Of a DNA stretch of 64,000 nt, positions 754 to 61,976 are shown one piece after another. This stretch comes from Bilabrum cf. latius (lineage: Eukaryota), in NCBI GenBank assembly GCA_965178125.1, contig OZ237748.1, positions 868,001 through 932,000 on the forward strand, in the 5' to 3' direction. A program made the position numbers and the translations under genes. The stretch's first letter is position 1; each line of letters begins with the position of its first letter. A model generated the notes under the pieces. It was given only the letters and a program-made list of their open reading frames with translations. It was not told the origin of the DNA and did no database searches.

Positions 754-3700
754 TTAGTGCCGACCCCTCTTCGCCCCGATGGTCCCGTCGTCAGCGTACC
801 CACCGGCGCCCCCGTCATGATGGTCGTCATCGTCGTCCTCATGATTGCGTTCGTGCCAAGGGCCTCCAACATCACATGCAAATTCCACCCTGATACATGT
901 ACCACACGTCCTGCTCCTCGTCCTCCTCCTCATTCGACCCCTGCTCCTCATCCCGCCGCCCGGCAGCAACACACACATCGCAACGCACACAGTGTGTCCT
1001 TCGTCGTCATCCTCATCCTCATCGTCATCGTCGTCATCGTCATCATCGTCACTAGAATCCGAATCCACGTCAACGTCTTCAACGAATTGGAACTCCTCGT
1101 CCTGCACAGCACCGCCGGGCACTGCCTGCGCCTCGTCCTGCACAGCACCGCCGGGCACCTCCTGCTCCTCGTCCTGCACAGCACCGCCGGGCACCTCCTG
1201 CTCCTCGTCCTGCACAGCACCGCCGGGCACTGCCATCTCCTCGTCCTGCACAGCACCGCCCGGCACTGCCTGCTCCTCGTCCTGCACAGCACCGCCGGGC
1301 ACTGCCATCTCCTCGTCCTGCACAGCACCGCCGGGCACCTCCTGCCCCTCGTCCTGCGCAGCACCGCCGGGCACTACATGCTCCTCGTCCTGCACAGCAC
1401 CGCCGGGCACTGCCTGCTCCTCGTCCTGCACAGCACCGCCGGGCACTACATGCTCCTCGTCCTGCACAGCACCGCCGGGCACTGCCTGCTCCTCGTCCTG
1501 CACAGCACCGCCGGGCACTGCCATCTCCTCGTCCTGCACAGCACCGCCGGGCACTGCCTGCTCCTCGTCCTGCACAGCAACGCCGGGCACTGCCTGCTCC
1601 TCGTCCTGCATAGCACCGCCGGGCACTGCCTGCTCCTCGTCCTGCACAGCACCGCCGGGCACTGCCTGCTCCTCGTCCTGCACAGCACCGCCGGGCACTG
1701 CCATCTCCTCGTCCTGCACAGCACCGCCGGGCACTGCCTGCTCCTCGTCCTGCATAGCACCGCCGGGCACTGCCTGCTCCTCGTCCTGCGCTGCACCGCC
1801 GGGCACCTCCTGCTCCTCGTCCTGCACAGCACCGCCGGGCACCTCCTGCTCCTCGTCCTGCACAGCACCGCCGGGCACTGCCATCTCCTCGTCCTGCACA
1901 GCACCGCCGGGCACCGCCATCTCCTCGTCCTGCACAGCACCGCCGGGCACTGCCTGCTCCTCGTCCTGCACAGCACCGCCGGGCACTGCCTGCTCCTCGT
2001 CCTGCACAGCACCGCCGGGCACTGCCTGCTCCTCGTCCTGCACAGCACCGCCGGGCACTGCCATCTCCTCGTCCTGCACAGCACCGCCGGGCACCGCCTG
2101 CTCCTCGTCCTGCACAGCACCGCCGGGCACTGCCTGCTCCTCGTCCTGCACAGCAACGCCGGGCACTGCCATCTCCTCGTCCTGCACAGCACCGCCGGGC
2201 ACTGCCTGCTCCTCGTCCTGCACAGCACCGCCGGGCACTGCCATCTCCTCGTCCTGCACAGCACCGCCGGGCACCGCCTGCTCCTCGTCCTGCACAGCAC
2301 CGCCGGGCACTGCCATCTCCTCGTCCTGCACAGCACCGCCGGGCACCGCCTGCTCCTCGTCACCCTCAGCCTCGGCAACTGGCGGAGCGCCCGCGCCTCG
2401 GCTAGTGCGGCTTGGCGCAGTGCTGACATGCCGCATCGTCCCCGCTTCAAACACGCGCATGCACTCGTCACACCCCTCCACGACCGCCTTGAGCGGCACC
2501 ATCTCCCCCTCTTCGGACCACGGCGCCTTGACGTGGATCGTCAGGATGTCCCGGCTCACATTCCTCTCTCTCCTGAGGTACTCCCGGAGGTAGTCCACGT
2601 GGCCGTTGACGGTCATCTGGAACACTCGCCTGGCGTGCGTCTGCATCCGGTTCTCGATGCGCCTCATCCTCGCGGTGGACGGACACGTGGGACCAGCCCA
2701 GTGCTGGAGGTCATCGAGCTGTGCCTTCGGCAGGCGGGTCATAGCGGCTTCAACGAGGTCCAGGCCACTGTCTTTGGCGATGCAGAGGACGTCAATGATC
2801 GTGAGCCGGTCGGGACACCTCTGCTGAGCGGTTCTGAGGTCGCCCGCCTGTTGCCTTGCGAACTCGATCAGCGAGACTGGGCCGCCTTCCACTGCACCGG
2901 CGCCTGCTTCAGCTACGGCTTCATATTTTGGATGCACAGCTTCTGGCATGTCTCCAGAGGCTGCTATCGCTGGTGTTGCTGCTGCTGACGCCACGTTGCC
3001 GACTTTCGTTGCGGTGCTAGCCCCGTGCGACGCAACAATCCCGAGCGTAATGAGGCACCCACTCCGCACGGCGAGAGCCATGACGGAGTATCCGTGGTGA
3101 TCAATACCATTCTGCGATGATCCAACATTTGCTGTCGCTGGCAACACATAGTGTGGTTACAACCTAGTTGTTTGAACGCGATGATACCAACCGCAATCGG
3201 ATAGTAATACATCGATACATGTGGCGCCAAGTAGCAACGACCCAGCACGCAGTAAACTTACGGTAATCGCGGTAGTCACGGCAGCCGGACCCTCCGCTTT
3301 GGCGAGCAGCGTGAAGTTGATGTACATGCCCAGCGCAGCAGCATACTGAATCGGCTTGATACCATTCTATGGTGAACGAAACGAAATTTAACACAAGCCA
3401 TTCTATTATTTTACCGACGCGTTGCCCGGCACCAGGGTAGATGCAGGTGGCCATTCGTCACGAGGTGCGAAATTGTGCTTGCAACTGGAACCGCTCTCAC
3501 CGAATCCACCATTTGAGGATCACCTCCTGCATTTAGAAGCATCGATAGATAGTCCTGATTGTCCACTGTAGCAGCTAAGCATAACAGTGTTAGCCGGGTG
3601 CCGCTCTGCGTTGCTTTAGAATGCACGGTCTAGTTAGGTAGATTGATACATGTCACATGTGCAACATATGACCATGTCAGCCTGCGAGACTTCACACCGC

Positions 3701-5041: not shown

Positions 5042-7802
5042 TCAAAAACCTGCACCAGTCCTGCCCATGGCACCACCTGCCGGCGGTACTCTAGGCCCGC
5101 CCATGGCACCACCTGCCAGCGGTGCTCTAGCCCCGCCCATGGCACCACCTGCCAGCGGTACTCTAGCCCCGCCCATGGCACCACCTGCCGGCGGTACTCT
5201 AGCCCCGCCCATGGCACCACCTGCCAGCGGTACTCTAGCCCCGCCCATGGCACCACCTGCCAGCGGTGCTCTAGCCCCGCCCATGGCACCACCTGCCGGC
5301 GGTACTCTAGCCCCGCCCATGGCACCACCTGCCGGCGGTACTCTAGCCCCGCCCATGGCACCACCTGCCGGCGGTACTCTAGCCCCGCCCATGGCACCAC
5401 CTGCCGGCGGTACTCTAGCCCCGCCCATGGCACCACCTGCCGGCGGTACTCTAGCCCCGCCCATGGCACCACCTGCCGGCGGTACTCTAGCCCCGCCCAT
5501 GGCACCACCTGCCGACGGTACTCTAGCCCCGCCCATGGCACCACCTGCCGGCGGTACTCTAGCCCCGCCCATGGCACCACCTGCCAGCGGTGCTCTAGCC
5601 CCGCCCATGGCACCACCTGCCGGCGGTACTCTAGCCCCGCCCATGGCACCACCTGCCGGCGGTACTCTAGCCCCGCCCATGGCACCACCTGCCGGCGGTT
5701 CTCCAGCTCTGTTGGCCTAAAGTTGCTTTCGAAGTGCCTCAACTACCTGTTGGTGGCTGGGAAGCGGAAGGCAGTCGCATCTACCAGTACCATCGCCGGC
5801 ACCTGTTCCGCCCCGCTGCTGCTGCTGCTGCCTAGCCATCGACTGCCTGATTAGGTGCAGCCTCATATCTTCGTACCCTGCTTCTACGTGTTTCTCCAGT
5901 GCCGTCGGAGGTCGTCGACCGCATCTGCTCGCGCATGCCCCCGACACTGCGCTCGCGTCACACTTCGCACAGAAGCGTCCAATGTACACCATGGGTCCCC
6001 GACATGTAGGGCAGCCCTCTACTCCTCCCTTCAAGCATTTGGTTGACCTGCCCAGCACCCGCTTGCATGACACGCAGCCCCACCTGTGGCTGTACACCAC
6101 GGGGAAGCTGGGCTTGCCTGGCTCGGCGAAGCCCCGCTCCTGATTCTCTGCTCGCCTCTTCCAATCGGACAACTCCTGTCCACGCTCCCACGATGCGGCA
6201 TCACTGATCATGCACGCGGCGGCCTGGCACATGTAATGGATGAGCACAGTCCCGAGCTGCTGCCGGGTTGTGATTCGTTTGGGACTCAGCTTTAGAGTGC
6301 CGCCAATAGCCTGGCCCAGACGCTCAGCTGCCCCAGAAGATGCGGAGGCCAGCCTCCCCGTCCCTTCGTCTTGTCTTGCCCATCGGGGCTGAAACTGCCC
6401 TGCATCCTTCTTGAGCATATTGGTCCAGTAGAGGTCGATGCACGCTTCGCTGCTACTCCTGCCGGCGTCCCTGCTCCTGCGGGTGTCCCTGCTCCTGCTT
6501 CCTACTTTTTGCCGTCTTTTCGGTTTTTGTTTTGGCATTGCTGGCGCGTACAGCAGCACGGGCAGCTGGCTGCCGAAGACGCTGCTGTTGAACTGCTGGT
6601 ACAGGTCAACCGCAAGCGTTGTCAGCTGTCTCCGGCAAGTCGGCAAGTCGGCGTGTCCAGTACCATGCCCCGTTGCAGATGATGCGATGGCTTCCGCATT
6701 CGCAGTGATCAGTGTGCTGGCCGCCGTGCCAGCACCTGCGCGACTCCCACCCTCTAGGGTGCGCAGGACTGCAGACCCAGCACCCGCGCTACTCTCGACG
6801 CTGGGTCTGATTTGACCGATTCGCCGGCGACTGGGCGTGCCTGGGCCCGCACCAGAGGATAGGGAGGGGCTCCTTCGCCGGTGACTGGGTGTGCCTGGGC
6901 CCGCACCAGAGGGTAGGGAGGGGCTTCTTCGCCGGCGACTGGGTGTGCCTGGGCCCGCACCAGAGGATAGGGAGGGGCTCCTTCGCCGGTGACTGGGTGT
7001 GCCTGGGCCCGCACCAGAGGATAGGGAGGGGCTCCTTCGCCGGCGAATCGCTAGCTGCAGTGCCGAAGGGGAGGTAGTTGATGCGCCCCCGCTCTCTAGC
7101 CTTGCTTTCTTGCCACCCCTCGTGTCCTTGCACTCGTCATCCTCCTGGTCCACCTCCTTGTGTACCCCATGCATCTTGCATTCATCGTCGTCTCCCCCCA
7201 TCCTCACTTGCTGCTGCTGCTGCTGTTGTTGCCTGGTACCATTGCCCCTCTCCCTTCGCAGTGCAGCTGCTCTGGCTGAATGATCGGGACCATCATCGAA
7301 CGCCGAGGCGTCCTCTCGCCTTCGCTTGTTGCCGATGCCGGAGTGCGGTCTGCTGGTGTCTGGCTAGATCTGGGGGTGTATGTGAGGCCAACTCGGGGCC
7401 ACTAGAAAATGAATGACCAGAGCTTGTGGAACTGCTGCTTGATTGGAGGCCCATAAGACGTCGCAGATCTCGAATGCCACGCGATTGAGCCATGTCTCCA
7501 ACGGTTTGGGTAGGTCGATCTCCTGATACTGATGCCTGGTAGCCTCGCTCGCCTGGCATGAGCATTTCGTCACCATCGCTGTCGTCATCGCTGTCGGAGT
7601 TGCTGTCTGATGACAGCTCAATCACGCTCCTCTCGGAGTTGAGCTGCACGGAATCGTCGCCAACCTCCATGTTCCGTGCGGCGCTGGTGCTTTCGCGACG
7701 GGGGCTTGCGCTAACGCTCGCGTTCTCGCTGTGCATGCTCCATATCATGCTCGGGCTCTGCTCATTGTATGATCCATCCATAGGAGCCGACATTGCGAGC
7801 AA
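5042..7802 (-). CDS. GCNA/ACRC-like protein (acidic/SIM-like region, SprT-like domain, Zn ribbon, HMG-like helix) with degenerate active site
   Basis: LYQQFNSSVFGSQLP...WTNMLKKDAG...LKLSPKRITTRQQLGTVLIHYMCQAA matches the SprT fold. CVSC...CPTC Zn ribbon follows, and VIELSSDSNSDSDDD is SIM-like. The TAG at 5717 reads through in frame into the 39-bp repeat ORF, ending at TGA 5042. A frame change (intron) is needed near 7400. Confidence 0.7.
5063..5699. repeat. 39-bp coding minisatellite, ~16 copies (PPAGGAMGGARV-type on the minus strand)
   Basis: Unit approximately GCCCATGGCACCACCTGCCGGCGGTACTCTAGCCCC, tandemly repeated; unit length judged by eye (36-39 bp). Confidence 0.9.
6820..7045. repeat. 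54-bp coding repeat, ~4 copies (RRRSPSLSSGAGPGTPS[H/R])
   Basis: Direct tandem copies inside the GCNA-like ORF. Confidence 0.85.
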
Positions 7803-12544: not shown

Positions 12545-13610
12545 GTAAAATTTTCTCTCAGAAAAAATATATTTGAAATAAACTAAAGGCTTGCCCCCTG
12601 CTATTAATATGTAGGGACCTTGTATGGGATTCGTAGGGGCACGTACAGCCCGAGCAGCATTCACTTGCATAATTCCGAGCATCTAAACTACCTTTTGCCG
12701 GATTGATGAAAAACAAGCTCACATTGGCACATACGTGAAAAGGGTCCTGACTTGCATCGAGCTACAAGGATAGATTTATGAATTTGTAGTGCTTTGCCAT
12801 GCGAGAACAGCCCCCCCCCGGATTGCCTCACGTTTGCAGAACGTTCGTTGGCAACATGATGAAATAGATCTCTTGGGCGCTTCGTTACACACGATTTCAA
12901 TTTCACCGTAGGCGTGCATTCTCAACCGATTCAACCAGCCCGGATGGCACACCACGCACCACCAGCGGCTGAACAGCATACACACCCGCGAGCTCAATCT
13001 CGTCGTACGAATCCCCCGCTCCACTCAAGCAAAAACCAGATCCCGCTGCACCTCAACAGGGACACAAGGGCATGCTGGCAGCAGCAGCATAAGCACAAGC
13101 ACCGCAACACAGCAGCCCGACTAAAGCTGCTCACCAATTATCAGATCTCACACCACCCCGCTGCCCAACAGCGAGCGCTGGAGCACACAGCCCACCACGA
13201 GCCTTTTGAACAGCCTGTGACAACCGCGCCAAATGACCCGCAACACACCCCTTGTCCCAGGATGCAGCGACCCAAAAAGATCTGTCAAAAATCAACCCAT
13301 CACCTGGGCTCCTCTGCAGAAAATTCGTCCCAACACAACCCACCCACCCCATGGCCCCACGCAGGCCGCTAGTTCACGCCCCTACCAATACCACCCACCC
13401 ACCCTATGGCCCCACCCAGGCCGTCACTTCACGACCCCCCTCCACCCCTCCCCTGCAACCCAAGCTAGTCCACAAAAAGTAGTGTCCAGGAACATCCATC
13501 CATCCAGTCCAGCCGAGGTCACTCGTCACACACCCCGAAGTATCTGCTGGCCCCCCACCCCAGTCCAAGTCCCAGTCCCTGCCGCAATCCTGCTCAAGCG
13601 GGTGCCACTG

Positions 13611-13810
13611 CTGCTGCAGCGAGCGCGTTCGCGCCGACCTGGCCCCGCCGCGACTATCCCGCCACCTCGTCCGAATTCATACTGCGCAACGCAAGAGTTG
13701 TTGTACAGTTGGTATCCTTTCGGATGTTGTTGTTGTGCGATATATGAATTCGGAGGAGGTGGCGGGTGAGTCGCGGCGGGCCAGGTCGACGGGCAATCGC
13801 CCGCTGCTGC
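13611..13810. repeat. Imperfect long inverted repeat / fold-back
   Basis: 13635-13681 is the reverse complement of 13743-13788 at ~43 of 47 positions, with weaker pairing outward and into the loop. Confidence 0.85.
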
Positions 13811-13931
13811 CGTTCCCCAGTAGCATCCTGCAAGGCTGGATTAAAGGCAAAGATCAGGGGAGGAAGAGGAACAAAAGGGGGCGCAAACGAGGGGCAGGCG
13901 CGAGCTGCTCGTCACACCGTGAAGGGACAGC

Positions 13932-15077
13932 TCAGAGAGGCCCCCACAGCCGGCCCGGCCCCACACATTTTGATACGTACCAGCGCAGAAGCACTGCCAC
14001 TTTCCACGACGAGTGCCAGCCGCACACGAGAACGCCCCGCGGGAACGCACTCGTCACATCCCCACCCCGAACACTCGTCACACCGTCGAGCTCACGGTCT
14101 TCGTAGCGCAAGACGCTCCGGTAGTGCCGAAGCCTCGTCTCGAGCAGCTGGCGCGACCACCGCTTCGCATCACGCTTGGAGACCCAAACGATGCCGGCGC
14201 GCGGAAGAGTTGACGGTTCGGGGTCACAGCAGTGCGATGCACCCGCGGATGCGGACGATCCCATGAAAAATGCACGGTTGTCGCCACTTGCCCAGTCCCG
14301 CCCAACCACGATCAGGTTACCCGCACCGCATCTGGAACCAGCACCAGCACCAGCACCAGCACCAGCACCAGCACCAGCACCAGCACCAGCACCAGCACCA
14401 GCACCAGCACCAGCACCAGCACCAGCACCAGCACCAGCACCAGCACCAGCACCAGCAGCACCAGCACCAGCGCGCTTGCGCTCGCATGGGTACCCACGGC
14501 CTGGGCAACACTTCCGTCCATTGGCTCTCTCCCACATGTCCCCGCCCTGCAAAGACCGGAACTGTTCGACGACGAAATCCGCTCGAAACATGCCGCCACA
14601 ATCACTCGTCACACCTGCATCGGGGTAGAGCAGCGCGGTCCACGCATATCCCACCGTATGGCCCCTGCGGCACTTCAGTGGCACCAGCCTGCCAAATCCA
14701 CGGGTGTATTGGCGCCACCCGGATGATTCTACTGGCCACTGCGGCCACGCGATGGGGGGTTCGGCGCGTGCAAGCGAACGTTCCTCTGTGGCCCCACCGG
14801 CCTCCTCCTCCTCCTACTCACCGCGATTCTGGCTGCACTCGTCATCGCCACACCGTCCTTGTGCACCCCCTCCGACGACCATACCTCCCCCCACGCATGT
14901 GTGCTCGGGGGCAGCTTGCGCTTCCAGCTGGGATCTCTAGGGTTCGATTCCGGGAGACGGCGTCGAGGGCGACGCAGCGCCGGCGCCAGAATGCGGCGCG
15001 ATTGCCGACATCGCAACGGTGCGCTCGGTGGCCTGCAGCGAGGGGTCGGGCGAGGAGCGAGCAGCGTGCTCACTCAT
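13932..15077 (-). CDS. Hypothetical protein (~381 aa) with an (AG)n tract
   Basis: ATG 15077 is in frame with track ORF 13932..14684 via two TAGs and ends at TGA. A (GCACCA)n microsatellite at 14337-14471 encodes poly-AG. Confidence 0.5.
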
Positions 15078-15440
15078 TCGATCGCCTTCCCCCACCGCTT
15101 TGGAACCACCTCGCGCGCCGCCCGACGGCAAATCTTTGTCTGTTTTGCTGCGATACGCATGCATAAATAAGCGAAATATGCATTTTAGTCGAATTAGCTC
15201 GGAGAGTATTCCATAAAACCCTTTTGAACGGAAATATGTCGGGTTTACACAACGCGGTCCGAACGTAGCTACAGGCGCTGCACGTACTCGGCATTGGCGA
15301 GTTGTCCAACACAAGAAAACTCACGAGTCTACCCTCAGCATATGGTTCCGTAAACCACCAAATGCAGGTAGACCCGTAGCTGTCGGCTCGACAGATACGG
15401 GAGACTGCAAGCAACGCGGTCCACGGCTGGACGCTTGTAT

Positions 15441-17712: not shown

Positions 17713-20700
17713 TCACCACAGCGCACCCCCCTCATCGTCCGAGGAGTCACCATCCCCCCCACCCCCACCACCATCCTGCAGCACCACCTCCTCCTCCATC
17801 CCCTCCATCGCCGCATCCTTCAGCGCCTGCTCCTCCCTTAGCCGCCTCCTCGTCTCCTCCTCCTTCTCCTTGTCCCTGCCAGCGGCACCCATGGACCGCC
17901 TGGCTGCCGCCGCCTCCTCGTCCACGTTCACCTTGCGCACACCAGTCAGTGAGCCGCTGCCCCCACTCGTCACACCACTACCACCACCACCGGACCCGCT
18001 TTGGCCACCCTCCGCACGGAGCCTTTCCCTCCTCTCTTTCGCGGTCTCGATCTTGATGGCCCCTCCCCCGGCACCACCGCCCCCGTACCCCCATCCGGAG
18101 CCCCACCCAGCCCCCGCGCCCGTCCCCCCCGCCCCGTCCCCACTGCTGGGCCAGTCCCCGAAGAGGTTCAGATCGGGTCTGAGGGGATCGTCAGGCGGCT
18201 GCTGCAGCATGGCCCTCTGCTTTTCGGAGAAACCGCGCTCGGGCCAGTCGAGGAGAGTGATGGTCACCTCATCCCCGCCCTCGAGATTGACCACCTGGCC
18301 AGAGTAGTCCACGGCAGGCCACAGGCTAGGTCCCAATGCAGCGGAAGGATCTGCCGTGTCTGTGCCTGTCTTCCACAGGGAGTCCGGGTCGTAAGGGTCC
18401 GGTGGCGATTTCGATTCCGAGTTGCTGCCGGGCGGTGGGTCGGTGCCGCCTGCACCACCAGGCGATGCACCCTGCTGCTGTTTCGTATCCTGTTCCGGTT
18501 TGGCTGGAAGCGGGGGCACCTCGTCCACGCCCGCGCCCAGCCCCAGCCCCAGTGTCCCGTGCCCTGGATGCCCCGGCCCCACGTCCACCCCCGAGAATGT
18601 CTTGAGCTCGCAATCGCCCTGCACGCCCAGAGTCGCCTTGGCGTTGTAAGCCGAATCAACCGAGTAGGCGAGTCGGCGCCAATCCACCCCGGCAGCCGCT
18701 GCGATCCTGCGACCGAGGGCCTCCCACCCGTCGCCTTTGACCACCCTTACCTCCCTGCGTGGCCAAAGGTGTCCCCTGCTCCGATCCCACCATCGCACCC
18801 GCACGATCGCCTGCCCGTCTTCCGCCAGTCCTGCGGAACCGGCCGGCGCCGCGCGTGTCCGCAGCGTCGCCTCGGGGTGCTCCCCCGTGGCCAGGATCGC
18901 ACTCGTCACATCCTCCTCACTCGTCACACCGTCCTCCGGCGGCCTAACCTCGAAGGAAAGCAAGGCCCCCGGGTACAGCGAGGCAGACCCCACCGCTGTG
19001 CTCACAGTCGCCCCGGCCGATTCAACGACCGCCCCCGGCTGCGTGCTGAACTTCCTGCCCCGGACCCATGCGCCCGCCGCCCAATCGCCCGGAGTGACTT
19101 CTTCAAGAAGATCGCCCACCGCGGGATCTGCCTGGGCCTCGAGCAGCTGCGCCGCAATGGGATGCATCTCGCCCCCGCGCTCGGCCGAAGCGTCGACGGC
19201 CGCCTGCGCCGCGTCTCTGGTTGCAATCAGGTGCCTGTGTTCCCTGGCACCGAGTTCCGCAAGGCGCCGCGCAACCACGGCCGCCACCGCTCGCAGTGGA
19301 ACTTCCGGCAGCAGCGGAAGGTCGGCTATCTTCATCCTCTCGATTGGCAGGTCCGTCAGGAGCGGGTGGTTCGGCTCGGGTGCCACAAAGGGGGCCGCAG
19401 GGGAGGGGCTGCCCTTGGTCTTGATCTCAGCTGTGTTCCCGGGTTGTCCATTTTCTGTGGTCTCACCTGCATTGTCCTTAGCCTCAGCTTTGCTCTTGAT
19501 CTTGTTCTCTTCCTCGCCCCAGAATACCTCTTTAAGCCGGGTCGTGTCACCCTCCTCTGGCAGGATTTGCGGCCGGCCGAGTGGACCCCACGGGGACGCA
19601 CTCGTCACATCTTTGCCCGACTGGTCACCGCCGGAGGACGCACCGGCAGCGGAAGTGGGATCTCCACTCGTCACACCACCACTCGTCACACCCGCAGCCT
19701 TGTTCCTCGCCGCCTCCGTCTCTCTCTCCTGCACCGCCATGGCAGCCCTGGCTTCCACCCTCTCCTCCTCCGTGGGGGCAGGAGGGACCCACCCTGTGAC
19801 GAGTGGACTCGGAGTCGGAACCGGTCCACCTGGGCTCGCGCCCTCGCTCTCAGCACCGGTTGCAGCAAGGGACTGCATCTCCTTCCCCTTCCCGTCCCAG
19901 TCCCCGCACGCAGTGTCAAACCAGCGCCAACCTACAGCCCACGGCGCCCGCAGCACCTGCACGGCGCAGATCTGCTCACCAGCCCGAATGTCCCTGCCGT
20001 CCCGGAGAGCCATCTTGTCCTCCCTATAGATGTGCGTGTCCAGCAGGAGGGTGGGCCGCCCACTCGTCACACCCCCGGACAGCATGGCCCGCGAGGTGTT
20101 GCCCTTGTGAGCCTGGAAATGACCCGGAGTCAGGCCTGCCGCTTTGGCCAGGGCCGCCTTCAGCTCCACCACCGGTCTCCGCACGTCGAACAGGATCACG
20201 CCTTCCCGGCGCCGCAGCGGCACTTGCTTCTCCTTCTCACTGCCGGCCTCTTTCACGTCTGCGCCCGCGCCTGCCCCAGAGCTGGCACCCGGGCTGGCTG
20301 ACCCAACCGCGGGCGAAGGCGAAGATGACGACGACGATGATGATGCCGGTGCTTCCACGGTCTTCCCGCCTTTGACCACGTCTTGTTCCCCAAGATCGCC
20401 GGTTGCAACCGCGCCCTCGTACTCCCAGGGCAGAGCCGCGGAGAACACCCGCTGCTCGATGCATCGCACTGCGGCGCTGTCCACACTCGTCACAGGGACC
20501 ATGGACCCCAGCTCCGCGCTGCTGTAGGGGCAATAGTCCTTGTCTCCAAATGCGGCTCCCCTCGCCGAACCTTCCTCCTGCTGCATTACGTCACCAAAGG
20601 GTTCGTCGGGGGCGTCGGGATCTGCCGCAGCGGCGGCGGCTGCTGATGACCTGGGATCGGATGACCCGGAGTCGGAAGTCCCGCTGCCGATCGCGGCGTC

Positions 20701-23700
20701 GACGGCAGAAGCAGCCGCCGCCGCCCCGCCATCCCCACTCGTCACACCGCTCGGGTCCTCGCCCGCCCCGTCGCCTTCCTCGTCGTCCATCGCCCCCGAC
20801 CAGGGCTTCATTCCCGCGGCAGTGTCCCCGGCGGCAGCCGCCACCCTGGGACCCTCCTCGTCCTCACTCGTCACACCATCGGGGAGCAGCTCCCCCAGCA
20901 CCTCGCCCCCCTCCCCGATCCCCATGCCGCCCAGCGCCCACGCGGTGCGTCGGACGGCCCACTCGTCACACCCGTCTCCGCCCTGACCCGCACTCGTCAC
21001 ACGGTACCTGCAGAAATCCCCCTTCTTCCGCGAGGTACCGCGGAGCCGCCACGCGCTCAGCTGCCGGCTATTTCCGGTATAGCTCAGGGCATCCTTGCTC
21101 TGGCAGCTCCAGCGGAACATGCGGAGCCTGGAATGCGCGGCGCCGGAAAGCCGGGGCGCGATCCTCGGATGTTCCGCAATGCGGCGCCGCAGCTCCTCCA
21201 GCGTCGCGCCGGGGGGGACCCTGACGATGGCGGGGTCCAGGGTGAGTGGGGGGACGAACCTTCCGAGCGAAGGTTCGCTGGCTTCCTGCCTGCTGCTAGA
21301 GTCGTCACCCGAAGCACCGCCCAGATCGCCGTCGCCATCTCCGTCACGAGCACCGGCAGCGGCACCGGCACCGGCACCGGCAGCGGCTTTGCCGTCGCCG
21401 GGCACAAACACGCGAACTTTCACGGAAATGTCCCCGTCGTCCCAGCGCACCCACGGGTGCATCGCACTGTCGCGCACCTCAAGGCATAGATAGCTGTGCC
21501 TCGATATCTTGGTGGACTGGATCCGTTTCAGCTCCGGGTCGTCTGGAACAAGCTCCACGGCCTCCTCGATCCCGTCCCCGTTTTGGTGTGACGAGTGCGG
21601 ATCGGCCGAAGAGGAGGAGGAGGAGGAGGAGAGATCAAGGGCCCTGGCCTTCGCCAGCAAGGGCACGAACTCGGAGCCGGAATCTCCCCACTCCTGCCCC
21701 ACAGGGGGGCCCATCGCACCCGTCCCCCCTCGCCACATCCGCAGCCTGATGCAGCTCAACGGATACATTTTCCGGCCCGCGGGCCCGATCCACGACTCCC
21801 GGCGGGGGTCTTCCCCGAAGGAGACCTGCCTGGCCATGCCCTCCGGTGGGGGCGCCAGAGCAGGGTGTGACGAGTGTGGGGCGGCAGCGGAATCATCGCC
21901 CTCTCCATCACCACTTTGACCACCCTCATGGTCAGAAGGTGTCCAAAGGCCGTGGGCCTCTGCCGCCCTCCGTTTGAACTCGAGCACAGTCTCGTTCCTC
22001 GAGATCGTCAGCTCGAACGTCTGGTGGGACTCTTTCAGCCGATCCACCAAGTCGGGCCCGGCCTCGGTGTGATGAGCGGACTCGGAATCGGAACCGAGGG
22101 TGCCGGCGCATGGGCGCGCCGCCCGCGGCAGCTTGGTTGACACTGGCCTGAGCCCAGCCACCTCATCGTTCGCCAGCTGACCCAGGATCGGGTCATCCAG
22201 CTCGTTCCACCGGTGGACCACATTGACCTGGATCTTGGCGGCTTCTTCGAGCCGTGCCTGTTCCGCGGCTTGTTCCGCGGCTTTGGCCGCCTCGGCCTCC
22301 CTGGTGACCCATGGGGGCACGTCCCCCTTGTTCCCCTCGGGGAGGGGTGCCCCCACCCTGACGTACGTCTGAGTCAGCGTTGAGGGGTCCGGGTCATCAT
22401 CCTTGGTGGTGGCCACTGTATCCCTGCCACCGTCACCATCCTCACCATCGTCAGCACCGTCACCAGCATCAACGGCTCCTACAGTGGATGCCTCGTCCCC
22501 TTTCCTCGGTCTGGCCGCGTCCTCTTCAGCTGCCAGCACGCCCAGCGGATCGATCCCGAGTGCAGCCGCCTGCTCAATCGTCACACCGTACGACTCAGTC
22601 ATGAAGCTCCATTCCTGCACCTACATGTCGCGTGGGTAGCCGCTCGCTCCTGCCAGGTCGTCAGCGAGCCCCTGCAGCCCAACCCTCTGGCTCTCGGTCA
22701 GGATCCCAGCGGCGGGTCTAGATACATCTTCCGGTCTGGATGGCTCTTCCGGTCTGGATGACTCGTCCTCCTCCTCATTATCCCTCTCCTTTTCCTGCTC
22801 CTATTCCCCCTCCTTGTAGTCGTCACACGAATACGCACCCGGGTCCCTCTGGATGCATCGCACTGCGGTTTCCCCCACGGTGTTACCCCTGGGACCCACC
22901 TCCACCTGCTGCCAGGAGGGGCCCGGTGAACCTGGTGTGACGAGTGATGACGAGGGCACGGCTCCGGTCCCTTCGCCTGCACCTGCAGACACTGCACCCT
23001 CTCCCCCATCGCACTCGTCACACGGGGGTGGGACACATTCCGCGCGGCGGTACACCACAAAGTAGGCGGTCCCGCTGCCGAACGCGCCGCCCTTGCTGCC
23101 TCCCAGGTTTGACCACCTGCCGCCCCAGCAACGCACCACCTCCACGTCGGTCGCACTCGTCACACTGGAATCGTTGAACTCGTGCCACCGGCCCGTGGAG
23201 ACGTCCTTGACGTACGAGTAGTAGTGGCCGGAGCCGGTCCCGCCTGCGTGTACGAGAACCGCGTACAGCTCGTACAGCGACTCGGAGCCGAAATCACCGT
23301 CGTGGCCGTTGCCGTTGCCTCCGGCTCCTTCCCCTTGGTCGTCGTCGGTCCCGCCACTTCCGGCTCCGGGTCCAGTGTCGGCCATCCTCTCGAGCTTGCT
23401 GATCTGCAGCGCGGGGTTGAGGTCGGGGTTTGGCTCTTCTCCTTCTCCTTCTCCTTTGCCCTTGTCGCCTTCATCGCCACCACCGCCCGAGAACCCCGAG
23501 GCCGCCGCGGCCGCCGGGCCCGCGGAAACCGCACTCGTCACACCTGACTCCTTCCTCCTCCGGTCCTCCTCCTATTTTTGCTCCTCCTTCTCTGTTATCT
23601 TCCTCTGCCTGTGCATCGCAACAAGCTCCCTGGGATCCGCGTCCGGCTGGTACTCGAGGGGCAGTTCCCTCCAAGCATCGAACAGATCGGCGCCCTCTGG

Positions 23701-23749
23701 CACTGGTGCATCGGGTGACGGCATCACTGCCTGACCAGGGGCATCGGGA

Positions 23750-23791
<42 letters not shown>

Positions 23792-26232
23792 GATGACGAG
23801 GGTTCACCACCTTGGCCACCACTCCCACTTTGCCCATCCCCACCCTCACCCCCACCTTCCTTCTCCTTCTCCTTCTCCTTCTCCTTCAGCTCCTTGATTG
23901 CTTGTTCCCTGGCCTGCGCCAGGCACCTCTTCGCCGCGATCCTCTCCCCCCCTTCCCCAGACCTGACCCACATCCAAAAGGGAAACCTAAGCTCGTCCAG
24001 CACCTTCTTGGACTGGAACGTGACCAAGTCCAGAGTGAACCTGTGGAGATGGAAGGCCAAGTGAGGCGAGGCAGACACCAGCAGCTCCCCCTTCACGCTC
24101 CGGGTCCGCTCCCCGCACTCGTCACATGTCACGGCGTTCCCACCCTCCATCACGGTGGCGCTTTGGGCCTTGGCCAGCGCCTTGACAAGCGTCGTGGGTC
24201 CGCTGCCCTCCTCCCCCCCCATGGGCCTGACCTCCACCCCCATGTCCGTGTGGCCCTGCACGCGCCTGCGCACCTCCCCGCACTAAGTGCACGCTACATA
24301 ATCCGACATGCGGCTCTCGAAGGCGGAGGAGAAGGGCTTCCGGCCCAGCTCCTGGGGGGGCGGCGCCAGGGTAGATTTCCATTCCGAGTCCTCGGCCTGC
24401 TCCGCAGCGCGCTGTTTGGCCATCGCTTCCTGCTGCTCTCGGTGAGCCTTGGCATCTTCATCTTCATTTTCATCGCCATCTTCATCATTCTTCCCCTCCT
24501 CTTCCTCCTCCTTGTCTCGGCCGCTGCCTTCCCCATGGTCTGTGGCTTTCTCGGGGTGAGCTGCGTCCTCGGCACTCGTCACACCCTCACTCATCACACC
24601 ACCAGCCCCCTCCGTCCCCCCCATGAGGTGGTCAAAGGCGCCCTCCTGCCCCACCCTCTCGTCAAAATTCCGGTCCATCGCGTCCAGAAGAACGTGAAAG
24701 AGCTCCTGCGCGTCTGACTGCTGAAAAACCTGCCCGTCAGTCCAATGGAACGAGTCTGTCAGCGCGCGAGTGGACGCCGCGGGGGGAGAGGCGAACAGCC
24801 CGCCGCTGTAAGTAGGCGAAGATGAAGAAGAGGAATGGGACTGCTCCTGGCCCTGCCCAAAGGCCTCCTTGAGCCCCCAGGGGTCGTTGGGGTCAGCCTC
24901 ATTGGGCCCCTGGGGGTCCGTGGGGTCACCGCCACCTGCCCCCGACAGTGCGGGGTCTTGCTCGGGTGCAGCGGACTGCGGCACATCCCCTGATTTTGAC
25001 TCCGAGTCGGTACCCTTTGCGTCAGCGTTCGGATCAGCACCATGTGCGGTCTTTCCAGCTTTCGAATTGTCTTCATCTCCCTCCTCGCCCTTCTTTTGCT
25101 TCTCTCCGTCTTGATGCTTCCCTCCATCCTCATCAGCCCCTCCATTCTTCTCCTCTTCCTCCTGGTCCTTGTCCTTGGCCTTGTCCTCGGCCTGGTTGTC
25201 CGCACGACGTGCAGCCCACGCGGCGGCATCTCGCCCCGCCACTGCCTCCACGCCCGCCCTGCCCTGGTCCTGGCCCTCCTGCAGCCTCGCGAACAGCCGC
25301 TGGCACTGCAGTAGAATGCACTCGGCCTGGTCACCGTCCACCTCCTCGCAATACCGGAACCACTCCAGCACCCTCCGGCGGAAATCCGGAGTCATAAAGA
25401 GCATCTGCAGCAGCGAGTTCAGGTAGCACGTCGCCCCCTGGTTCCCCAGTCCGCTAAAGGGGGACAGCGGAACCAGCGCGGCGCCGGGGCCGCTGCTTGG
25501 GAGGTTGCAACCGGCGCGCCGCCCGTGCCACTGCGCCTTCATCCCAAGGTCACTACCAGCACCAGCACCAGCACCAGCGCCGCCGCTTTCTTCATCTTCA
25601 TCTTCATCGGGCTGCGTGACCTTCACCCCAGGCACGCCCCCGAAGCTGAAACCGGAACCAGGGCTCGCCCACGGGTCCGAATCCGCCCCATCGGGCTGCG
25701 GTGCCGTCTGACCCCATGCATCCAAGGGGGCCGGGGCCGGGGCAGGGGCAGAGGCAGGGGCCGCACCATCGTGCGATGCACCCGTCCCGGACCCCGAGGC
25801 ACCCTCCCCCCCACCACTCCCGCTCCCGCCTTCACTCGTCACACCGCTGCCGCCCCCCTCCCCGGACTCTGTGGGTGCCCTCTCCACGGCAGGCTGCCCC
25901 CCGAATACGAAACCGCCCGAGCCGCCGTCACTCGTCACACCGGCGTCCCCTCCCGCCAGCATGTCGCCCCAAGCCTGCCCCACCAGCCCCCCCTCCTGCA
26001 CCCCGGGCGTGTCACTCGTCACACCCGATCCATCCCTGGCCATGTCGGGCAGCCCCTCGGTCCCGTAAGCGCCCTCGGCCGCCCTGGCCCTGGCCTGCGC
26101 ATCGTCCTCTTCGGCTTGCAATCGCATGGCGAGCGCTAAGCTGGCGTCCTCGTCCGATTCCGAGTTGGCTCCTCCGCCGTTGCCTCCGCCGCTGCTGCCG
26201 GTTGACTAGTCGCCGCCTGCCGTGCCGCTCAT
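17713..26232 (-). CDS. Ubiquitin-specific protease (peptidase C19, USP40/USP47-like), ~2,839 aa, apparently intronless
   Basis: Cys box GLGNQGATCYLNSLLQMLFMTPDFRR, QQSDAQELF, Zn finger CT*C...CDEC, His box YAVLVHAGGTGSGHYYSYVKD...WHEFNDSSV, and a UIM-like DASLALAMRLQAEE. One frame runs from ATG 26232 to TGA 17713 with 5 in-frame TAGs (26206, 24283, 23572, 22801, 22621). Confidence 0.9.
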
Positions 26233-26992
26233 CGCACAAGCAGCTTTTGGTTGTTTAATGCTAGGTGCTGCGCGAAGCAACGTGAAACGTGAAACGAATG
26301 AGGACGGTGTTAGATATGTACGGCTACTACACAATCCAATTCATTCCCAGAGGTGGATGATTCTGGGCGAAAAGCTCCGGCAAGTCTTGCCTGTGCCGAG
26401 GACACCACCCAAACTTGCCTACAACAGCCCACACCTCGCACATAGATAGAACATGATATTCAAACCACAATGAATGAGCGCTGGTTCGAATAATGACAGT
26501 TTTATCTGCTCAACGAGTTGTGTTCTCAGCGAATCAGGAAGCCCGTGCTGTACCTAGCCATGTGTCCAAACAAAACCATTCATTCATGATCGTCTAACAC
26601 CAAAAGGATCTCACTAGTACTTGTATCGATACAGATAGCAAACCAAAGCTATTTGCCGCGGGTAAATGCTTCAAGAAGCCTAACTATTGCATTGCAATCC
26701 GAACACACCTTGAGGCATTTTCGGTGTTTCCGATCGGATCATGCCGTGTGCATGCACAGCATGTTGCCGAGAGAGACCCCAGGGGGGAATCGCGCCTGCC
26801 TGTGTAAGTAAATAGCGTTACTCGGGCCAATTTCGTCTTTGAATGCCTCATTCAAGACAACAAGCCGCCAATCAAGATCCGATCGGAGTACTGGAACCAT
26901 CCCATCCCACATGTGCACACCACAAATCAAGGCCCCGAAGAATCCACAACCCGAGGAGAGCAAAAAGTCTTCCTAGCCCCCTTTAGCCCACA

Positions 26993-29375
26993 TCACAGCT
27001 CCTCGCCCATGAAATCCTCGTCCTCCTCACCGTCTTCCCCACCGAAGCCGCCCGCGCCGCCCGCACCTCCTGCAGCCGCGTACACCTTCTGGATGATGGG
27101 GTTGGCCACGCCCTCGAGCTCCTTCCTCTGCTCGTCCAGGTCGTCCTTGCTCGCCTCCTCGTTCTCGTCCAGCCAGTCCAGCACCTCCTGCACCTTGGAC
27201 TCGAGCTCCTCCTTCTCCTCGTCCTCGATCTTGCCGGCGAGGCCCTTCTCCTCGTCCTCCAGCTGGTTCTTGAGGTTGTACGCGTACGACTCCAGGCCAT
27301 TCCGGGCATCGATCCGGTCCTTCACCTCGGCGTCCGCGTCGGCGTTCGCCTCCGCATCGGCAACCATCTGCTCGATCTCCTCCTGGGAGAGGCGTCCTTT
27401 CTCGCTGGTGATGGTGATCTGCTCGCTCTTGCCTGTGCCCTTGTCCTCGGCGGACACCTGGAGGATTCCGTTCGCGTCGATCTCGAAGGTCACCTCGATC
27501 TGGGGGGTGCCGCGGGGGGCCGGGGGGATGTCCTTGAGCTCGAACTTGCCCAGCTAGTGGTTGTCCTTGGTCATGGCGCGCTCTCCCTCGAACACCTGGA
27601 TGAGGACGGCGGGCTGGTTGTCCTGGTACGTGGAGAAGGTCTGGGACTTCTTGGTGGGGATCACGGAGTTCCGGTTGATGAGCTTGGTCATCACTCCGCC
27701 CACGGTCTCGATGCCCATGGACAGGGGGGTCACGTCCAGCAGCAAGATGTCCTTGGTGTCATCGCCGCCTTCGCCCGAGAGGATGCCTCCCTGCACGGCA
27801 GCGCCGTAGGCCACGGCCTCGTCGGGGTTAATGCCCCTGTTGGGCTCCTTGCCGTTGAAGTAGTCCTTGATCAGCTGCTGGATCTTGGGGATGCGGGTGG
27901 ATCCTCCCACTAGCACCACCTCGTCCACCTCCTTCTTGGCCAAGCCGGCGTCGGATAGCACGCGGGTCACGGGGCCGAGCGTCTTCTTGAACAGGTCCAT
28001 GTTGATCTCCTCGAAGCGGGCCCTGGAGAGCTTGTCCACGAGGTCCTCGCCATCAAAGAGCGCCTCGATCTCCAGGCGGGCCTCGTGCTGGGAAGAAAGC
28101 ACCCGCTTGACGCGCTCCACCTCCCGGCGGAGCTTCTGCTTGGCGCGGTTGTCCTTGCTCATGTCGGCGCCCGTCTTGCGCTTGAACTTCTTGATGAAGT
28201 ACTGCATGACCCGCTGGTCGAAATCTTCTCCGCCGAGGTGGGTGTCTCCGTTGGTGGCAAGCACCTCGAACACTCCGTTGTCGATGGTCAGCGCCGTCAC
28301 ATCGAAGGTGCCCCCGCCGAGGTCGAACACCAGGATGTTCTTCTCTCCCCCCTTCTTGTCCAGGCCGTACGCGATGGCGGCGGCCGTGGGCTCGTTGATG
28401 ATGCGCCTGACGTTGAGCCCGGAGATGGTCCCGGCGTCCTTGGTGGCCTGGCGCTGGGCATCGTTGAAGTACGCGGGCACGGTCACCACGGCGTCGTTGA
28501 TCTCCTTGTCCAGGAAGCCCTCCGCGATGGTCTTCATCTTCCCGAGGACCATGGCGCTCACCTCCTCGGGAGCGAACTGCTTGTTCTCCCCCGCGAGGTC
28601 GACCTCCACGTAGGGCCTGCCGCTCTTGGAGACTACCTTGTAGGGCCAGAGCTTCATGTCCGCCTGCACGGTCTTGTCCGTGAACTTGCGGCCGATCATG
28701 CGCTTCACGTCAAAGACCGTGTTGGAGGGGTTGATGGTGGCCTGGTTCTTGGCCGCGTCTCCGATGAGCCTCTCACCAGTGGCGGGGTCCCAGGCGACGT
28801 ACGAGGGGGTGATGCGGTTTCCCTGGTCGTTGGGGATGATCTCCACGCGTCCGTTCTTGAAGACGCCCACGCAGCTGTAGGTGGTGCCCAGGTCGATCCC
28901 GATGGTCGTCCCGACTGCGGTGATGGAGCGAGTGGAGGGTTGCGAGAAGGACAATCGTTGCGATGCACACAGGGAGGGAGGGGATGCCGGCTGGCTGGCT
29001 GGCTGGCCTGAATGAAACTTCAAAACGATCACGTTCAAGCAACATGTTCCATCAAAAATACAAAGTCAAGATTAATCTGGGCTGCATGCGTGGCGTAGCA
29101 CACTAAATGCCAAGTAAATGGGCAAGGAGGCTGGTAGTGCAGCGATCCACAGAGTTTGTCTGGCCCACTACGCAAATACTCAGTCCTAGACCCCTAAGAA
29201 CCGATCAATTCAAATACGTACATATGAATCACTTAGATACTTGTCAGTTTGCGCACAAGCTGCGTGACAACAGCAGCGCCACCGACATGTTGCACTACAC
29301 GTGGAAGCCGATGCAGCAGCTCAGTTGGTCCAACTCACTTGCGTCTTCCTCATCCGCAAATGCGGGCAGTGACAA
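26993..29375 (-). CDS. BiP: ER-luminal HSP70 (BiP/GRP78)
   Basis: [22 protein letters not shown] and [12 protein letters not shown] signatures. One in-frame TAG at 27554 lies in MTKDNH*LGKFEL, and the protein ends MGEEL-TGA. The main exon starts after CACCGCAG (~28916); the upstream signal-peptide exon(s) are approximate. Confidence 0.95.
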
Positions 29376-47963: not shown

Positions 47964-50299
47964 ACCAGTGTTACTGATTCTGTGGTTTTATTTTACTTTT
48001 GGCGGTATTCCCTAGGCCTACCATCACAAACGAGTAAGCTGTGACGCGGCACTCACTGACGCCTAAGCCTAGATCTAGCCAAAACCTTACTATCCGGATT
48101 GCCTGACCGTACCCGTACGGGTACAGATGTGATGGGTCTGTATCATCCGGATTCTAATAGTAATCCTTGATAGACAGCGGTGATTTCCGAAACAGCTGGG
48201 CAGTTCCAAAGACCAAGGATCCGCAGATCCCCACTTGCGCTGACTGACGAGCAGCTTAAAACTATGTTTTGGGTACAGCAAGGGCTATGGATTCTTAATA
48301 CATCGTATTGCATTACCGTATCCAGGAATTGTCGGCAGACACCAATGTCCAGAATCAGGTATACCCGGTATGCTACGTAGCCGGGTAGCTAACCTTAGTC
48401 TAGCTACACCATCCACCCCTGTCAAAAATGCTTGATATTATGTTGATCCATAAAATGCTACCCCTACAATTATGAGGTTGAGTTCACGTTAACATTGAAG
48501 TTACTCAACAATCACAAAGGAGTGGAAGTATGTGTTAGCAGTACCGTAGTACAGCTCCCAGTCAGCTGGCTCGGCGGCCTTCGTATTCCTCGTAAAGAGG
48601 CCAGCCATTACTAGCCTGGGGACCACCTTTCCGATCGTTCTTAACGATCCATCTACGCCTGCACATGGGTCTGGACGACCTGCAAAGGCATCGCCGAAAT
48701 CTGAACCAAGCGTGGATGCGCCACGCTTTACAGCTTCTTCGAACACGCGATTTTCCAAGAGTTGAAGCGTATTGTAAGGCTCTATAGACTCTCCTGGTAG
48801 CTGAACGACTTTGAGTCTTCTACATGCGGCCACGATCTCATCAACTGGTCTCTTTCCGAACAGCTCCGTCATGCCCCTGAGGGGATCTATCACTGCGAGA
48901 TTGTTTCGTCTTGGTCTACAGTCCTCGCTACGATGCTTGGCTCTCAGGGCGGTGGCGTATTGCCACCTTTGTAGACACGCGTGTGTCTAGTGACCGACCT
49001 GGCTCTATCTCCAGGTCATGTGCTAGTGGTCGGGCAGCCCTGGTATGGGCTGCCGAGTCACCATGCCTCACGGCTCTGCCAAGACTTGGATTGTCTTGGC
49101 GAAGCGGTTACAACCGCTAATAGCGCGGAGCAACAGCCCTGTATCGATTCACTGCCAGTCAGTGCTTGCCCAAGGGGGAAGGTGGGCGGGTAAAATGTGA
49201 TGAGTTACGAATGAAAAGACTGGCGATGGGATGCGATAGTAGGCACTGCTGAAGTAGCGCGGCAGTGGTAGTAACTGCGGGGATGGTGGGTGGGTTCAAA
49301 ACAACAAGCAGTGGGAATCACCTCCTCTGGAGTTGCCCCTGCCTGTCTTCCCAGTGTGTATTGCCACATAATGACAATTATTACTGAGAATATCGGGGCA
49401 CAGCTGTAGAACACAGGTGCCACCGAAATTCCGAACAAGTGAGAGCCTCACATCTGCGCTCGGACTTGCGACCAATACTACACAATCTCTCCGATCTAAA
49501 TCACTTCGTAACGTGCCTCCGTACCTACGGCACACAACTGACGGGATCTATCACTGCGAGATTGTTTCGTCTTGGTCTACAGTCCTCGCTACGATGCTTG
49601 GCTCTCAGGGCGGTGGCGTATTGCCACCTTTGTAGACACGCGTGTGTCTAGTGACCGACCTGGCTCTATCTCCAGGTCATGTGCTAGTGGTCGGGCAGCC
49701 CTGGTATGGGCTGCCGAGTCACCATGCCTCACGGCTCTGCCAAGACTTGGATTGTCTTGGCGAAGCGGTTACAACCGCTAATAGCGCGGAGCAACAGCCC
49801 TGTATCGATTCACTGCCAGTCAGTGCTTGCCCCGCCGTTACCCACATGCGGGGTATTGCACTGACGTGGTATTGCCCTTTGCCGTATGTAATGCCACGTC
49901 GAAAGCGTGTGTATGGCCAGGTATCAAAGTGAACTCCCAGTGCTGTGCACGGCCACTCAATGCATTGGTAGGTAAACCGATGCAAAGTTGTGTCACGAAA
50001 TCCCAAGCTGTATTCCGAAATGCTACTTCTTCCCTCCATCCAAAACGATTGCATTCAAACTCCCAAAACGATTGCACTCAAACCTAGAAGAACTTCTCAT
50101 TCAAACTCCCAATATGAATCTCCCACAATCGTCTAGGATGGCATAGACTATTGCAAAACCTGTATCACTACGAAATGTCCATTAAACTATAGACACTAAC
50201 CAACAAAACTCCCATAATAACAAAGACCAGATGGTCAACGCCAATTGCAGATCTTGGCCAATGCCACAATGCCAGGGCCAACAACACGATGGTGGCCCC

Positions 50300-61354: not shown

Positions 61355-61976
61355 CGTCCAGGGATGGCACCTCAGGAAGACCGAATATCGAAATAATGCT
61401 TATGTTGATAACCGAATTTCCCTGCGCGGTTTCAACGAATTTCCGCTAAGAATAGCCAGAAGAAAGACATTGTTACAGTGCAATGAATTCGGTAAAATGT
61501 GGTTGTAGGGTGTTATTTATATCGAAACAGAAACAAGGTCAATCAGGCCGTACAAAAGTAGCTGCGGTCATTTGATTGCAGATGTCTGGGCGTAAGTTGA
61601 CCGATATGATATTCTACGGTGATTTTCGTGCTATGATAAAAGTTGTGGTGCTCTCGAATGACAGTTGCACTTGCTGATGCTAATCCACGAGTCGGAAGAT
61701 TCATGGCTGGCTGTTAATGCCGGCATTGCCTGCATTTAATGCGCACTCTGCATCATCACATAGGCTAGTGACTTGTTTGGGGCCGCTGCGAGGCTCTGAT
61801 CCGTGTCTGCCAGGTGCTGCTGTCATGTTGAAGTCTATGCGCCGAATTTGGTGTGCTTCGTCGCGGAGACGGCGCTGCAATAAGACAAACTGCAGCTACA
61901 AACACTCTAATATGTTACATATGACACGTTTACACTTCACACCGTCGGCATGTCGTATCTCTCGCGATCTTCGCAG

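Follow-up and report, generated by a model that had tools for sequence, protein, structure and literature searches.

Bacteria are known to carry exact words written over their coding sequence, and such words point to machinery for DNA uptake, repair or methylation. The uptake signal sequences (USS) of Pasteurellaceae and the DNA uptake sequences (DUS) of Neisseria occur genome-wide, are also common outside genes and are explained by the uptake bias of naturally competent bacteria. HIP1 of cyanobacteria is an 8-base palindrome found genome-wide and recognised by methyltransferases, while bacterial words of the Chi and KOPS (FtsK orienting polar sequences) type are G-rich, oriented, 8 bases long, enriched on the coding strand, genome-wide, oriented with replication and read by a translocating machine. 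In eukaryotes, the Mmi1 hexamers of fission-yeast meiotic mRNAs (determinants of selective removal, DSR) and PUF sites, which start with UGUR, are gene-specific, sense and additive within open reading frames (ORFs); such elements span 6-10 bases, are degenerate, come in few to about a dozen copies and show no antisense enrichment. Coding sequences of Eimeria carry in-frame repeats, CAG and telomere-like heptamers running through several frames as tandem 3- or 7-base units. Here we describe an exact 11-base word, TGTGACGAGTG, that recurs in a few genes of a 64-kb stretch of Bilabrum cf. latius DNA (assembly GCA_965178125.1, contig OZ237748.1, positions 868,001 to 932,000), above all in a gene for a USP47-like deubiquitinase. 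We call the whole stretch the window, and coordinates count from its first base.

One treatment of uptake sequences holds that they alter tripeptide frequencies and sit in poorly conserved genes and positions (PMC2817400), and an account of HIP1 (GCGATCGC) links this hyper-abundant word with specific recognition proteins (PMC13756078). Within the papers they covered, our literature searches for comparable words returned bacterial cases only and no eukaryotic one; the word and its complement appear only inside primers among the papers examined. As far as the literature was searched, then, nothing comparable has been described for eukaryotic nuclear genes. The evidence base below is the one 64-kb window together with ~27 kb of related metagenome contigs.

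Copies of the word and the genes that carry them

An exact search of the window finds 36 copies, against a mean of 0.04 (maximum 1) in 100 dinucleotide-preserving shuffles and about 0.001-0.002 copies per frame under composition models. They lie in four places: 24 in 17964-26023, where 20 are on the minus strand, the gene's sense, and 4 on the plus strand; seven in 62734-63932, all on the plus strand and all sense; four in 13520-14613; and one at 2462. The gene for BiP (26993-29065) has none. A first-pass annotation of this DNA, made from the sequence alone, had given about 24 copies in the USP gene, seven, four to five, one and none in BiP, and the exact search upholds these counts. The word is non-palindromic, its reverse complement CACTCGTCACA not being identical to it. 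It is also the sole dispersed word of the window: every other top k-mer comes from a tandem array, and none of the 14 arrays reported by Tandem Repeats Finder is built on it. The flanks of the copies are unrelated, with no conserved flank past a GG prefix and no target-site duplication, so that the first-pass statement that this is not a tandem repeat stands. Close pairs are nevertheless in excess, six (spacings 15, 18, 18, 24, 27 and 31 nt) against 2.6 expected (P = 0.04).

The edges of the word are sharp. Next to the 36 exact copies the window holds 3, 22 and 118 sites with one, two and three mismatches, where 1.2, 15 and 140 are expected; the three one-mismatch sites (22575, 24588 and 39530) compare with an expectation of about 1.2-1.26, and with so few of them the word lacks a halo of degraded or nearly matching copies. 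Ahead of it, G occupies position -1 in 30 of 36 copies and position -2 in 28 of 36, and the further flank is background. Whatever recognises or copies the word does so in an all-or-none manner across its 11 bases, the GG ahead of them being less strict.

The copies and their hosts are given below; ORFs were called with TAG as a sense codon (see below), and the letters after each copy are the residues read there.

17713-26340, minus strand: USP47-like gene, a single frame of 2875 codons, free of stops when TAG counts as sense, 24 copies
17964-17974, minus: sense, GVTS
18900-18910, minus: sense, DVTS
18918-18928, minus: sense, GVTS, 18 nt from the preceding copy
19599-19609, minus: sense, DVTS
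19665-19675, minus: sense, GVTS
19680-19690, minus: sense, GVTS, 15 nt from the preceding copy
19795-19805, plus: antisense to the USP gene, LVT
20061-20071, minus: sense, GVTS
20484-20494, minus: sense, PVTS
20736-20746, minus: sense, GVTS
20865-20875, minus: sense, GVTS
20960-20970, minus: sense, CDEW
20991-21001, minus: sense, RVTS, 31 nt from the CDEW copy and hence in a different frame
21587-21597, plus: antisense to the USP gene, HSSH
21866-21876, plus: antisense to the USP gene, HSSH
22575-22585, minus: one-mismatch copy TGTGACGATTG, from the mismatch search
22936-22946, plus: antisense to the USP gene, LVT
23012-23022, minus: sense, CDEC, directly past the USP domain
23154-23164, minus: sense, SVTS, in the USP core, inside its conserved FND...AT block
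23532-23542, minus: sense, GVTS
24116-24126, minus: sense, CDEC, second CxxC of the USP zinc ribbon
24573-24583, minus: sense, GVTS
24588-24598, minus: one-mismatch copy TGTGATGAGTG, C to T at a CpG, 15 nt from an exact copy
25833-25843, minus: sense, GVTS
25929-25939, minus: sense, GVTS
26013-26023, minus: sense, GVTS
13932-15320, minus strand: ORF of 462 codons (TAG as sense) without a Pfam family, 3 copies
14048-14058, minus: sense, DVTS
14072-14082, minus: sense, GVTS, 24 nt from the preceding copy
14603-14613, minus: sense, GVTS
13520-13530, minus: word at the end of a 24-codon frame ...GVCDE, whose TGA stop consists of the word's last two bases and an A
2462-2472, minus: sense, CDEC, sole copy of ORF 754-3156 (minus)
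61925-64000, plus strand: repeat-protein ORF of at least 691 codons (TAG as sense) running past the window end, 7 copies
62734-62744, plus: sense, GVTS
62761-62771, plus: sense, GVTS, 27 nt from the preceding copy
63145-63155, plus: sense, SVTS
63322-63332, plus: sense, GVTS
63724-63734, plus: sense, GVTS
63904-63914, plus: sense, GVTS
63922-63932, plus: sense, GVTS, 18 nt from the preceding copy

The repeat protein of 61925-64000 has at least seven diverged modules of the form (D/E)RL(Y/H/F) ... (C/L/P)TF(K/R/S)P.I without a Pfam match, and its seven copies of the word sit in five linkers ahead of modules even though the modules have diverged. Several hosts and neighbours also contain ordinary repeats. 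ORF 13932-15320 includes an (ACCAGC)23 array (14337-14471), which on the minus strand translates as a long stretch of (AG)n dipeptides. In-frame tandem arrays of 36 bases at 1093-2361 and 5063-5707 (35 and 18 copies, 93-97% matches) encode 12-residue repeats in ORFs 754-3156 and 5042-7621, and neither array carries the word. Satellite arrays at 50287-54110 (128 bases x 30) and 54920-56877 (325 bases x 6) show a strong A-over-T skew on the plus strand.

The window is eukaryotic in content, with BiP ending in a C-terminal EEL, the USP47-like deubiquitinase and an Aph-1 homologue. An intron of 347 bases (26268-26614, minus strand, GT..AG, GTGAGA...GCGCAG) lies upstream of the USP frame; it is missing from one contig of run X5, which joins across it, X5 being one of four sequencing runs whose contigs we compared with the window; in the contigs of these four runs the 8.6-kb USP frame itself shows no joint. 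As to likeness with a 5' splice site, the one intron seen begins GTGAGA; within the word, GTGACG departs from this at +5 and GTGTGA at +4, in a comparison with a single intron. Five in-frame TAG codons fall in the USP frame, among them those at 24283-24285, 23572-23574, 22801-22803 and 22621-22623, and one in BiP (27554-27556), where it lines up with the Leu of KDNH-L-LG, a conserved residue of human BiP. These codons make TAG a sense codon in this DNA, and the residue it codes is, from this alignment, probably Leu. The TAG positions in Aph-1 and in an SMC-like ORF of metagenome locus L027 carry no information on the coded residue. Terminators read in six ORFs are TGA five times and TAA once. 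A nuclear code with TAG as Leu has been published for one sainouroid rhizarian (PMC5304391).

Contigs of the four runs, which belong to four studies and of which one is possibly the source of the window, cover the USP sites over kilobases with 0 differences; many short run contigs from other places join at word positions. In public metagenome contigs we also looked for pairs of copies within 31 bases, which returned 121 stretches, a total that carries no weight because no control word was scanned. Unrelated arrays, tandem or near-tandem and lying in DNA with 30-75% GC, make up about 110 of 120 inspected loci. Eight contigs of one metagenome and a further locus (L079) resemble the window in having dispersed copies with unrelated flanks, mostly after GG. 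These nine loci hold 29 exact and 4 one-mismatch copies in 27.3 kb; their long ORFs contain in-frame TAG and read the word as VTS, and antisense copies give HSSH and TRH in Pfam-supported ORFs. By blastn and tblastn they have no homologous gene in common with the window. At L003 a 15-base unit is repeated four times, which is local amplification. Three pairs of copies lie outside ORFs, all in the sense orientation of the adjacent gene: the L006 pair is ~100 nt past a stop, the L051 pair ~135 nt upstream of a gene, and at L055 (2001-2025, minus strand) the word, in its TGA-containing frame, provides the stop of ORF 2024-2899, a second copy following 3 bases further in the presumed 3' untranslated region. 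The window copy at 13520 also ends a short frame, but in the CDE frame, unlike L055.

A scan of viral sequences gave 5 loci, all unrelated. The GTDB scan also gave 5, of which L126 alone resembles the pattern, with one further copy in its genome. A 16-kb contig binned in a rumen metagenome-assembled genome (L137; contig C79 of G001) has five copies at 14445-14557, arranged as two facing arrays with 18-base spacing between divergent ORFs. The same contig holds a LeuRS gene and an ORF of 2728 codons without a Pfam family and without in-frame TAG, and the rest of this 4.1-Mb genome has one copy.

With these data, chance, low-complexity composition or an assembly artefact is a negligible explanation for the word. 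The G-rich composition of the host ORFs is all that speaks for it, while shuffled sequence yields 0.04 copies, independent contigs of the four runs agree and metagenome contigs from other assemblies share the word.

Maintenance at the nucleotide level and the protein filter

The word is kept at the nucleotide level and shapes protein sequence, as the first-pass annotation had proposed. In the longest spanning ORFs it is read as xVTSx 27 times, as CDEC or CDEW 4 times, and in antisense as HSSH twice and LVT twice; every translation listed by that annotation (GVTS/DVTS/SVTS, CDEC/CDEW, HSSH, LVT) is found among them. In the three word-rich ORFs VTS occurs 27 times and is always encoded by GTGACGAGT, one of 96 possible codon triplets, with no alternative coding, whereas amino-acid shuffling predicts 0.64, 0.17 and 0.07 VTS in the USP, 61925-64000 and 13932-15320 ORFs. 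Codon usage and synonymous coding of VTS had been set beforehand as refuting controls, and neither refutes the enrichment: in 1000 shuffles of synonymous codons the USP ORF holds 0.49 copies on average (maximum 4), where 24 are observed, with 0.05 against 7 in ORF 61925-64000 and 0.03 against 3 in ORF 13932-15320. Along the way the word makes use of codons that are rare in the USP frame, AGT (30 of 252 Ser) and TGT (5 of 27 Cys). The GG prefix behaves in the same manner. It precedes 5 of the 8 copies outside the VTS frame (P = 0.003), including 3 of the 4 antisense ones, and thus is not simply a glycine codon. Together, the single VTS triplet, the four other readings and the frame-independent GG bear out maintenance as nucleic acid.

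Selection for a linear peptide motif xVTSx, its identical codons being due to recent duplication, would account for the 27 of 36 copies that give VTS, for the most part within low-complexity sequence and in the form G-VTS-(A/G/E/D). It does not account for 27 tripeptides without synonymous variation, for nine copies that are read otherwise, four of them antisense, for GG outside the VTS frame or for unrelated flanks. The frame and codon data already contradict this explanation, and we regard it as highly improbable.

It appears that the protein acts as a filter. Sense and antisense copies in the three word-rich ORFs stand at 30:4, where a codon-position composition model of the masked ORFs predicts ~3:1 (P = 0.052); VTS and CDE frames stand at 27:3 among the sense copies, against ~1:1 from composition (P = 1e-5), and the third sense frame, which contains TGA, has no copy within ORFs. 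Composition accounts for most of the strand bias and not for the frame bias, which fits a peptide filter for which VTS is benign and the Cys-containing CDEC less so. The term 'frame-independent', used in the first-pass annotation, is right in that several frames and both strands are used and too strong in that 27 of 30 sense copies share one frame where about half were expected. Hidden stop codons in the +1 frame were rejected as a purpose of the word, since a TGA needs no 11 fixed bases and the antisense copies have no stop. Protein constraint sets the site and frame of surviving copies, with VTS far ahead of CDEC, followed by antisense HSSH, LVT and TRH.

The word is not spread through the genome at large but confined to few genes or gene neighbourhoods, as judged from about ten ORFs in one 64-kb window. 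At 2.81 per kb, the three word-rich ORFs contain 34 of the 36 copies in 12.1 kb. Of the remaining ORFs, three with 63-66% GC (754-3156, 5042-7621 and BiP; 7.0 kb) contain 1 copy against 19.8 expected (P = 5e-8). All 51.9 kb of the window outside the word-rich ORFs, two satellite arrays included, have 2 copies, where the density within those ORFs would give 146. The word-free ORFs have about as many sites with 3-4 mismatches per unit length, so that composition does not explain the restriction. It follows from the figures for GC-rich ORFs that enrichment in 'long, intron-poor, GC-rich exons', as first annotated, was too general a description. CpG observed/expected is 0.70-1.05 in twelve ORFs and 0.78-1.05 in the word-rich ones, and decay by CpG methylation was rejected on these values.

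We compared positions in the USP gene with the sequence of the solved USP47 structure (PDB). The CDEC of the copy at 24116 aligns without gaps with CENC of the USP47 zinc ribbon, confirming the earlier claim that the word supplies the CDEC of the USP zinc finger, and the copy at 23154, read S-VTS-A, aligns without gaps with R-VDF-A right after the FND motif of the catalytic core. These two copies thus arose by substitution, not insertion. Substitution of bases at the site itself made at least some of the copies, and small local duplications made others. Insertion or the footprint of a mobile element was rejected on the same two ungapped copies and on the lack of a shared flank past GG. The aligned conserved USP blocks (~0.94 kb) have 2 copies, which is not clearly under the gene-wide 2.8 per kb. 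An orthologue search with the 1635-residue ORF gave no match; an exhaustive search with the residues of 22804-23571 gave 2775 USP matches, the best of which (P0002) is a tenfold tandem USP17-like array and not an orthologue.

Forces that could create and keep the copies

Our tentative preference is a cis signal made up of many copies with additive effect, for which selection in a subset of transcribed genes would create and keep the copies. We favour it for the restriction to a few genes, the near-absence of the word elsewhere in the window, the sense orientation of copies outside ORFs and the modest sense excess. The reader would be a factor with long exact specificity that acts on the sense transcript or the transcribed gene body. 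Since the word has no degenerate position, base pairing or a long modular reader is suggested, most plausibly a short guide RNA pairing with the 11-13 bases, or else a modular repeat protein; the guide RNA would carry CACUCGUCACA(CC). The minority antisense copies might be by-products of local inverted duplication, or might work on duplex DNA. Such a signal might bear on stability, export, localisation or translation, or it might mark chromatin.

Several observations weigh against a cis signal. Antisense copies greatly exceed the chance level: the USP gene has 4, where ~0.02 per orientation is expected for the whole window, and in the metagenome contigs some lie in Pfam-supported ORFs such as the abhydrolase of L076 and the DUF5054 protein of L027. 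Reading on sense RNA alone would not lead one to expect this enrichment. The sense excess over composition is marginal at P = 0.052. A guide RNA might tolerate G-U wobble variants, and these are not enriched in the window, where TGTGATGAGTG alone is found, once. In predicted RNA accessibility the word does not exceed controls (0.43 versus 0.39, P = 0.15), with a flank-shuffle z of 0.08. Scanning the window against Rfam and for tRNAs returned nothing, and no candidate guide RNA or binding protein emerged, with no search directed at such a partner. The gene restriction itself is based on about ten ORFs in the window, and one window with ~27 kb of contigs does not separate selection from drive.

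Drive is the main rival. A bias of mismatch repair or gene conversion that favours the exact word over near-matches would let copies build up without function wherever proteins tolerate them, as a eukaryotic counterpart of bacterial uptake sequences or HIP1. Such a bias sits well with copies that arise in place by substitution, with enrichment in both orientations, with the sharply peaked mismatch spectrum and its near-lack of one-mismatch copies, and with frames that give tolerable peptides, the 27:3 preference for VTS over CDE going beyond composition. Uptake sequences show the same pattern, according to Findlay and Redfield (PMC2817400). A drive should, however, also fill non-coding DNA and tolerant ORFs, and the 51.9 kb outside the word-rich ORFs has 2 copies where 146 would be expected, despite a similar density of near-matches; nor are the conserved USP blocks, with 2 copies in 0.94 kb, clearly poorer than the rest of the gene, and BiP has none. 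We know of no eukaryotic mechanism with exact 11-bp specificity. On balance, drive without function is possible but somewhat unlikely.

Enrichment in both orientations would also be explained if the copies were double-stranded sites for a sequence-specific protein in gene bodies or in a chromosomal neighbourhood, with a candidate role in replication, in marking chromatin or as a hot or cold spot of recombination. A regional effect would suit the side-by-side position of two word-rich ORFs at 13.9-26.3 kb, and the inverted five-copy array on contig C79, with its 18-nt spacing between divergent ORFs, looks promoter-like. Between those neighbouring ORFs (15.3-17.7 kb), however, there are zero copies. 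The C79 contig, of uncertain kinship to the organism of the window, lacks in-frame TAG in its 2728-codon ORF and has one further copy in its genome. To our knowledge, contiguous exact specificity over 11 bp without degenerate positions is unusual among DNA-binding proteins. We consider duplex sites unlikely.

The sharp edges of the copies bring up a different process, in which 11-13 bases are written over or inserted from a short template, either a fixed RNA copied by reverse transcription or an abundant oligonucleotide recruited for patch repair. Exactness is what such writing would leave behind: 11 invariant bases, GG in 28-30 of 36 copies and background past that. Local amplification, as in the fourfold 15-nt unit of L003 and the close pairs (6 versus 2.6 expected), points the same way. 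Simple insertion is excluded, though, for the two copies that replace residues in ungapped conserved blocks; there is no target-site duplication and no longer shared flank, and we know of no mechanism for overwriting without flanking homology. Templated writing is accordingly doubtful, and the least probable of the forces considered in this section.

Comparison with known systems

The boldest reading of the data is of an exact 13-base address word substituted into selected nuclear genes at ~3 per kb, which would be read by a dedicated small RNA or propagated by sequence-specific conversion. It would amount to a gene- or transcript-marking system without a described eukaryotic counterpart, possibly common to a protist lineage in which TAG is sense. 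We hold this reading a little more cautiously still than the cis signal. If the word is a signal, it represents a new cis-regulatory code, strong enough to determine residues within a catalytic domain and to impose rare codons; a driven word would represent sequence-specific conversion bias in a eukaryote. In either case the word is a precise experimental handle, and a marker for contigs of this lineage in metagenomes.

The likeness to bacterial uptake sequences is considerable. As described for USS of Pasteurellaceae and DUS of Neisseria, they too are exact words of 9-12 bases, at about one per kb, substituted into coding sequence with a frame preference (PMC2817400). The present word differs from them in being found in a eukaryote, in few genes, with a sense bias of 30:4, and in being nearly absent from the other 51.9 kb of the one window. 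With HIP1 it shares the character of a hyper-abundant exact word inside genes whose maintenance is unexplained; unlike HIP1, it has 11-13 bases, is non-palindromic and is gene-restricted. Chi and KOPS appear different in another respect, as the orientation of our word follows the gene in both the minus- and the plus-strand cluster. Among elements read on RNA, the word begins with UGUG, as PUF sites might, yet compared with DSR and PUF elements it is longer and exact, and its antisense copies are enriched. From the in-frame repeats of Eimeria it is set apart by occurring as single copies with unrelated flanks.

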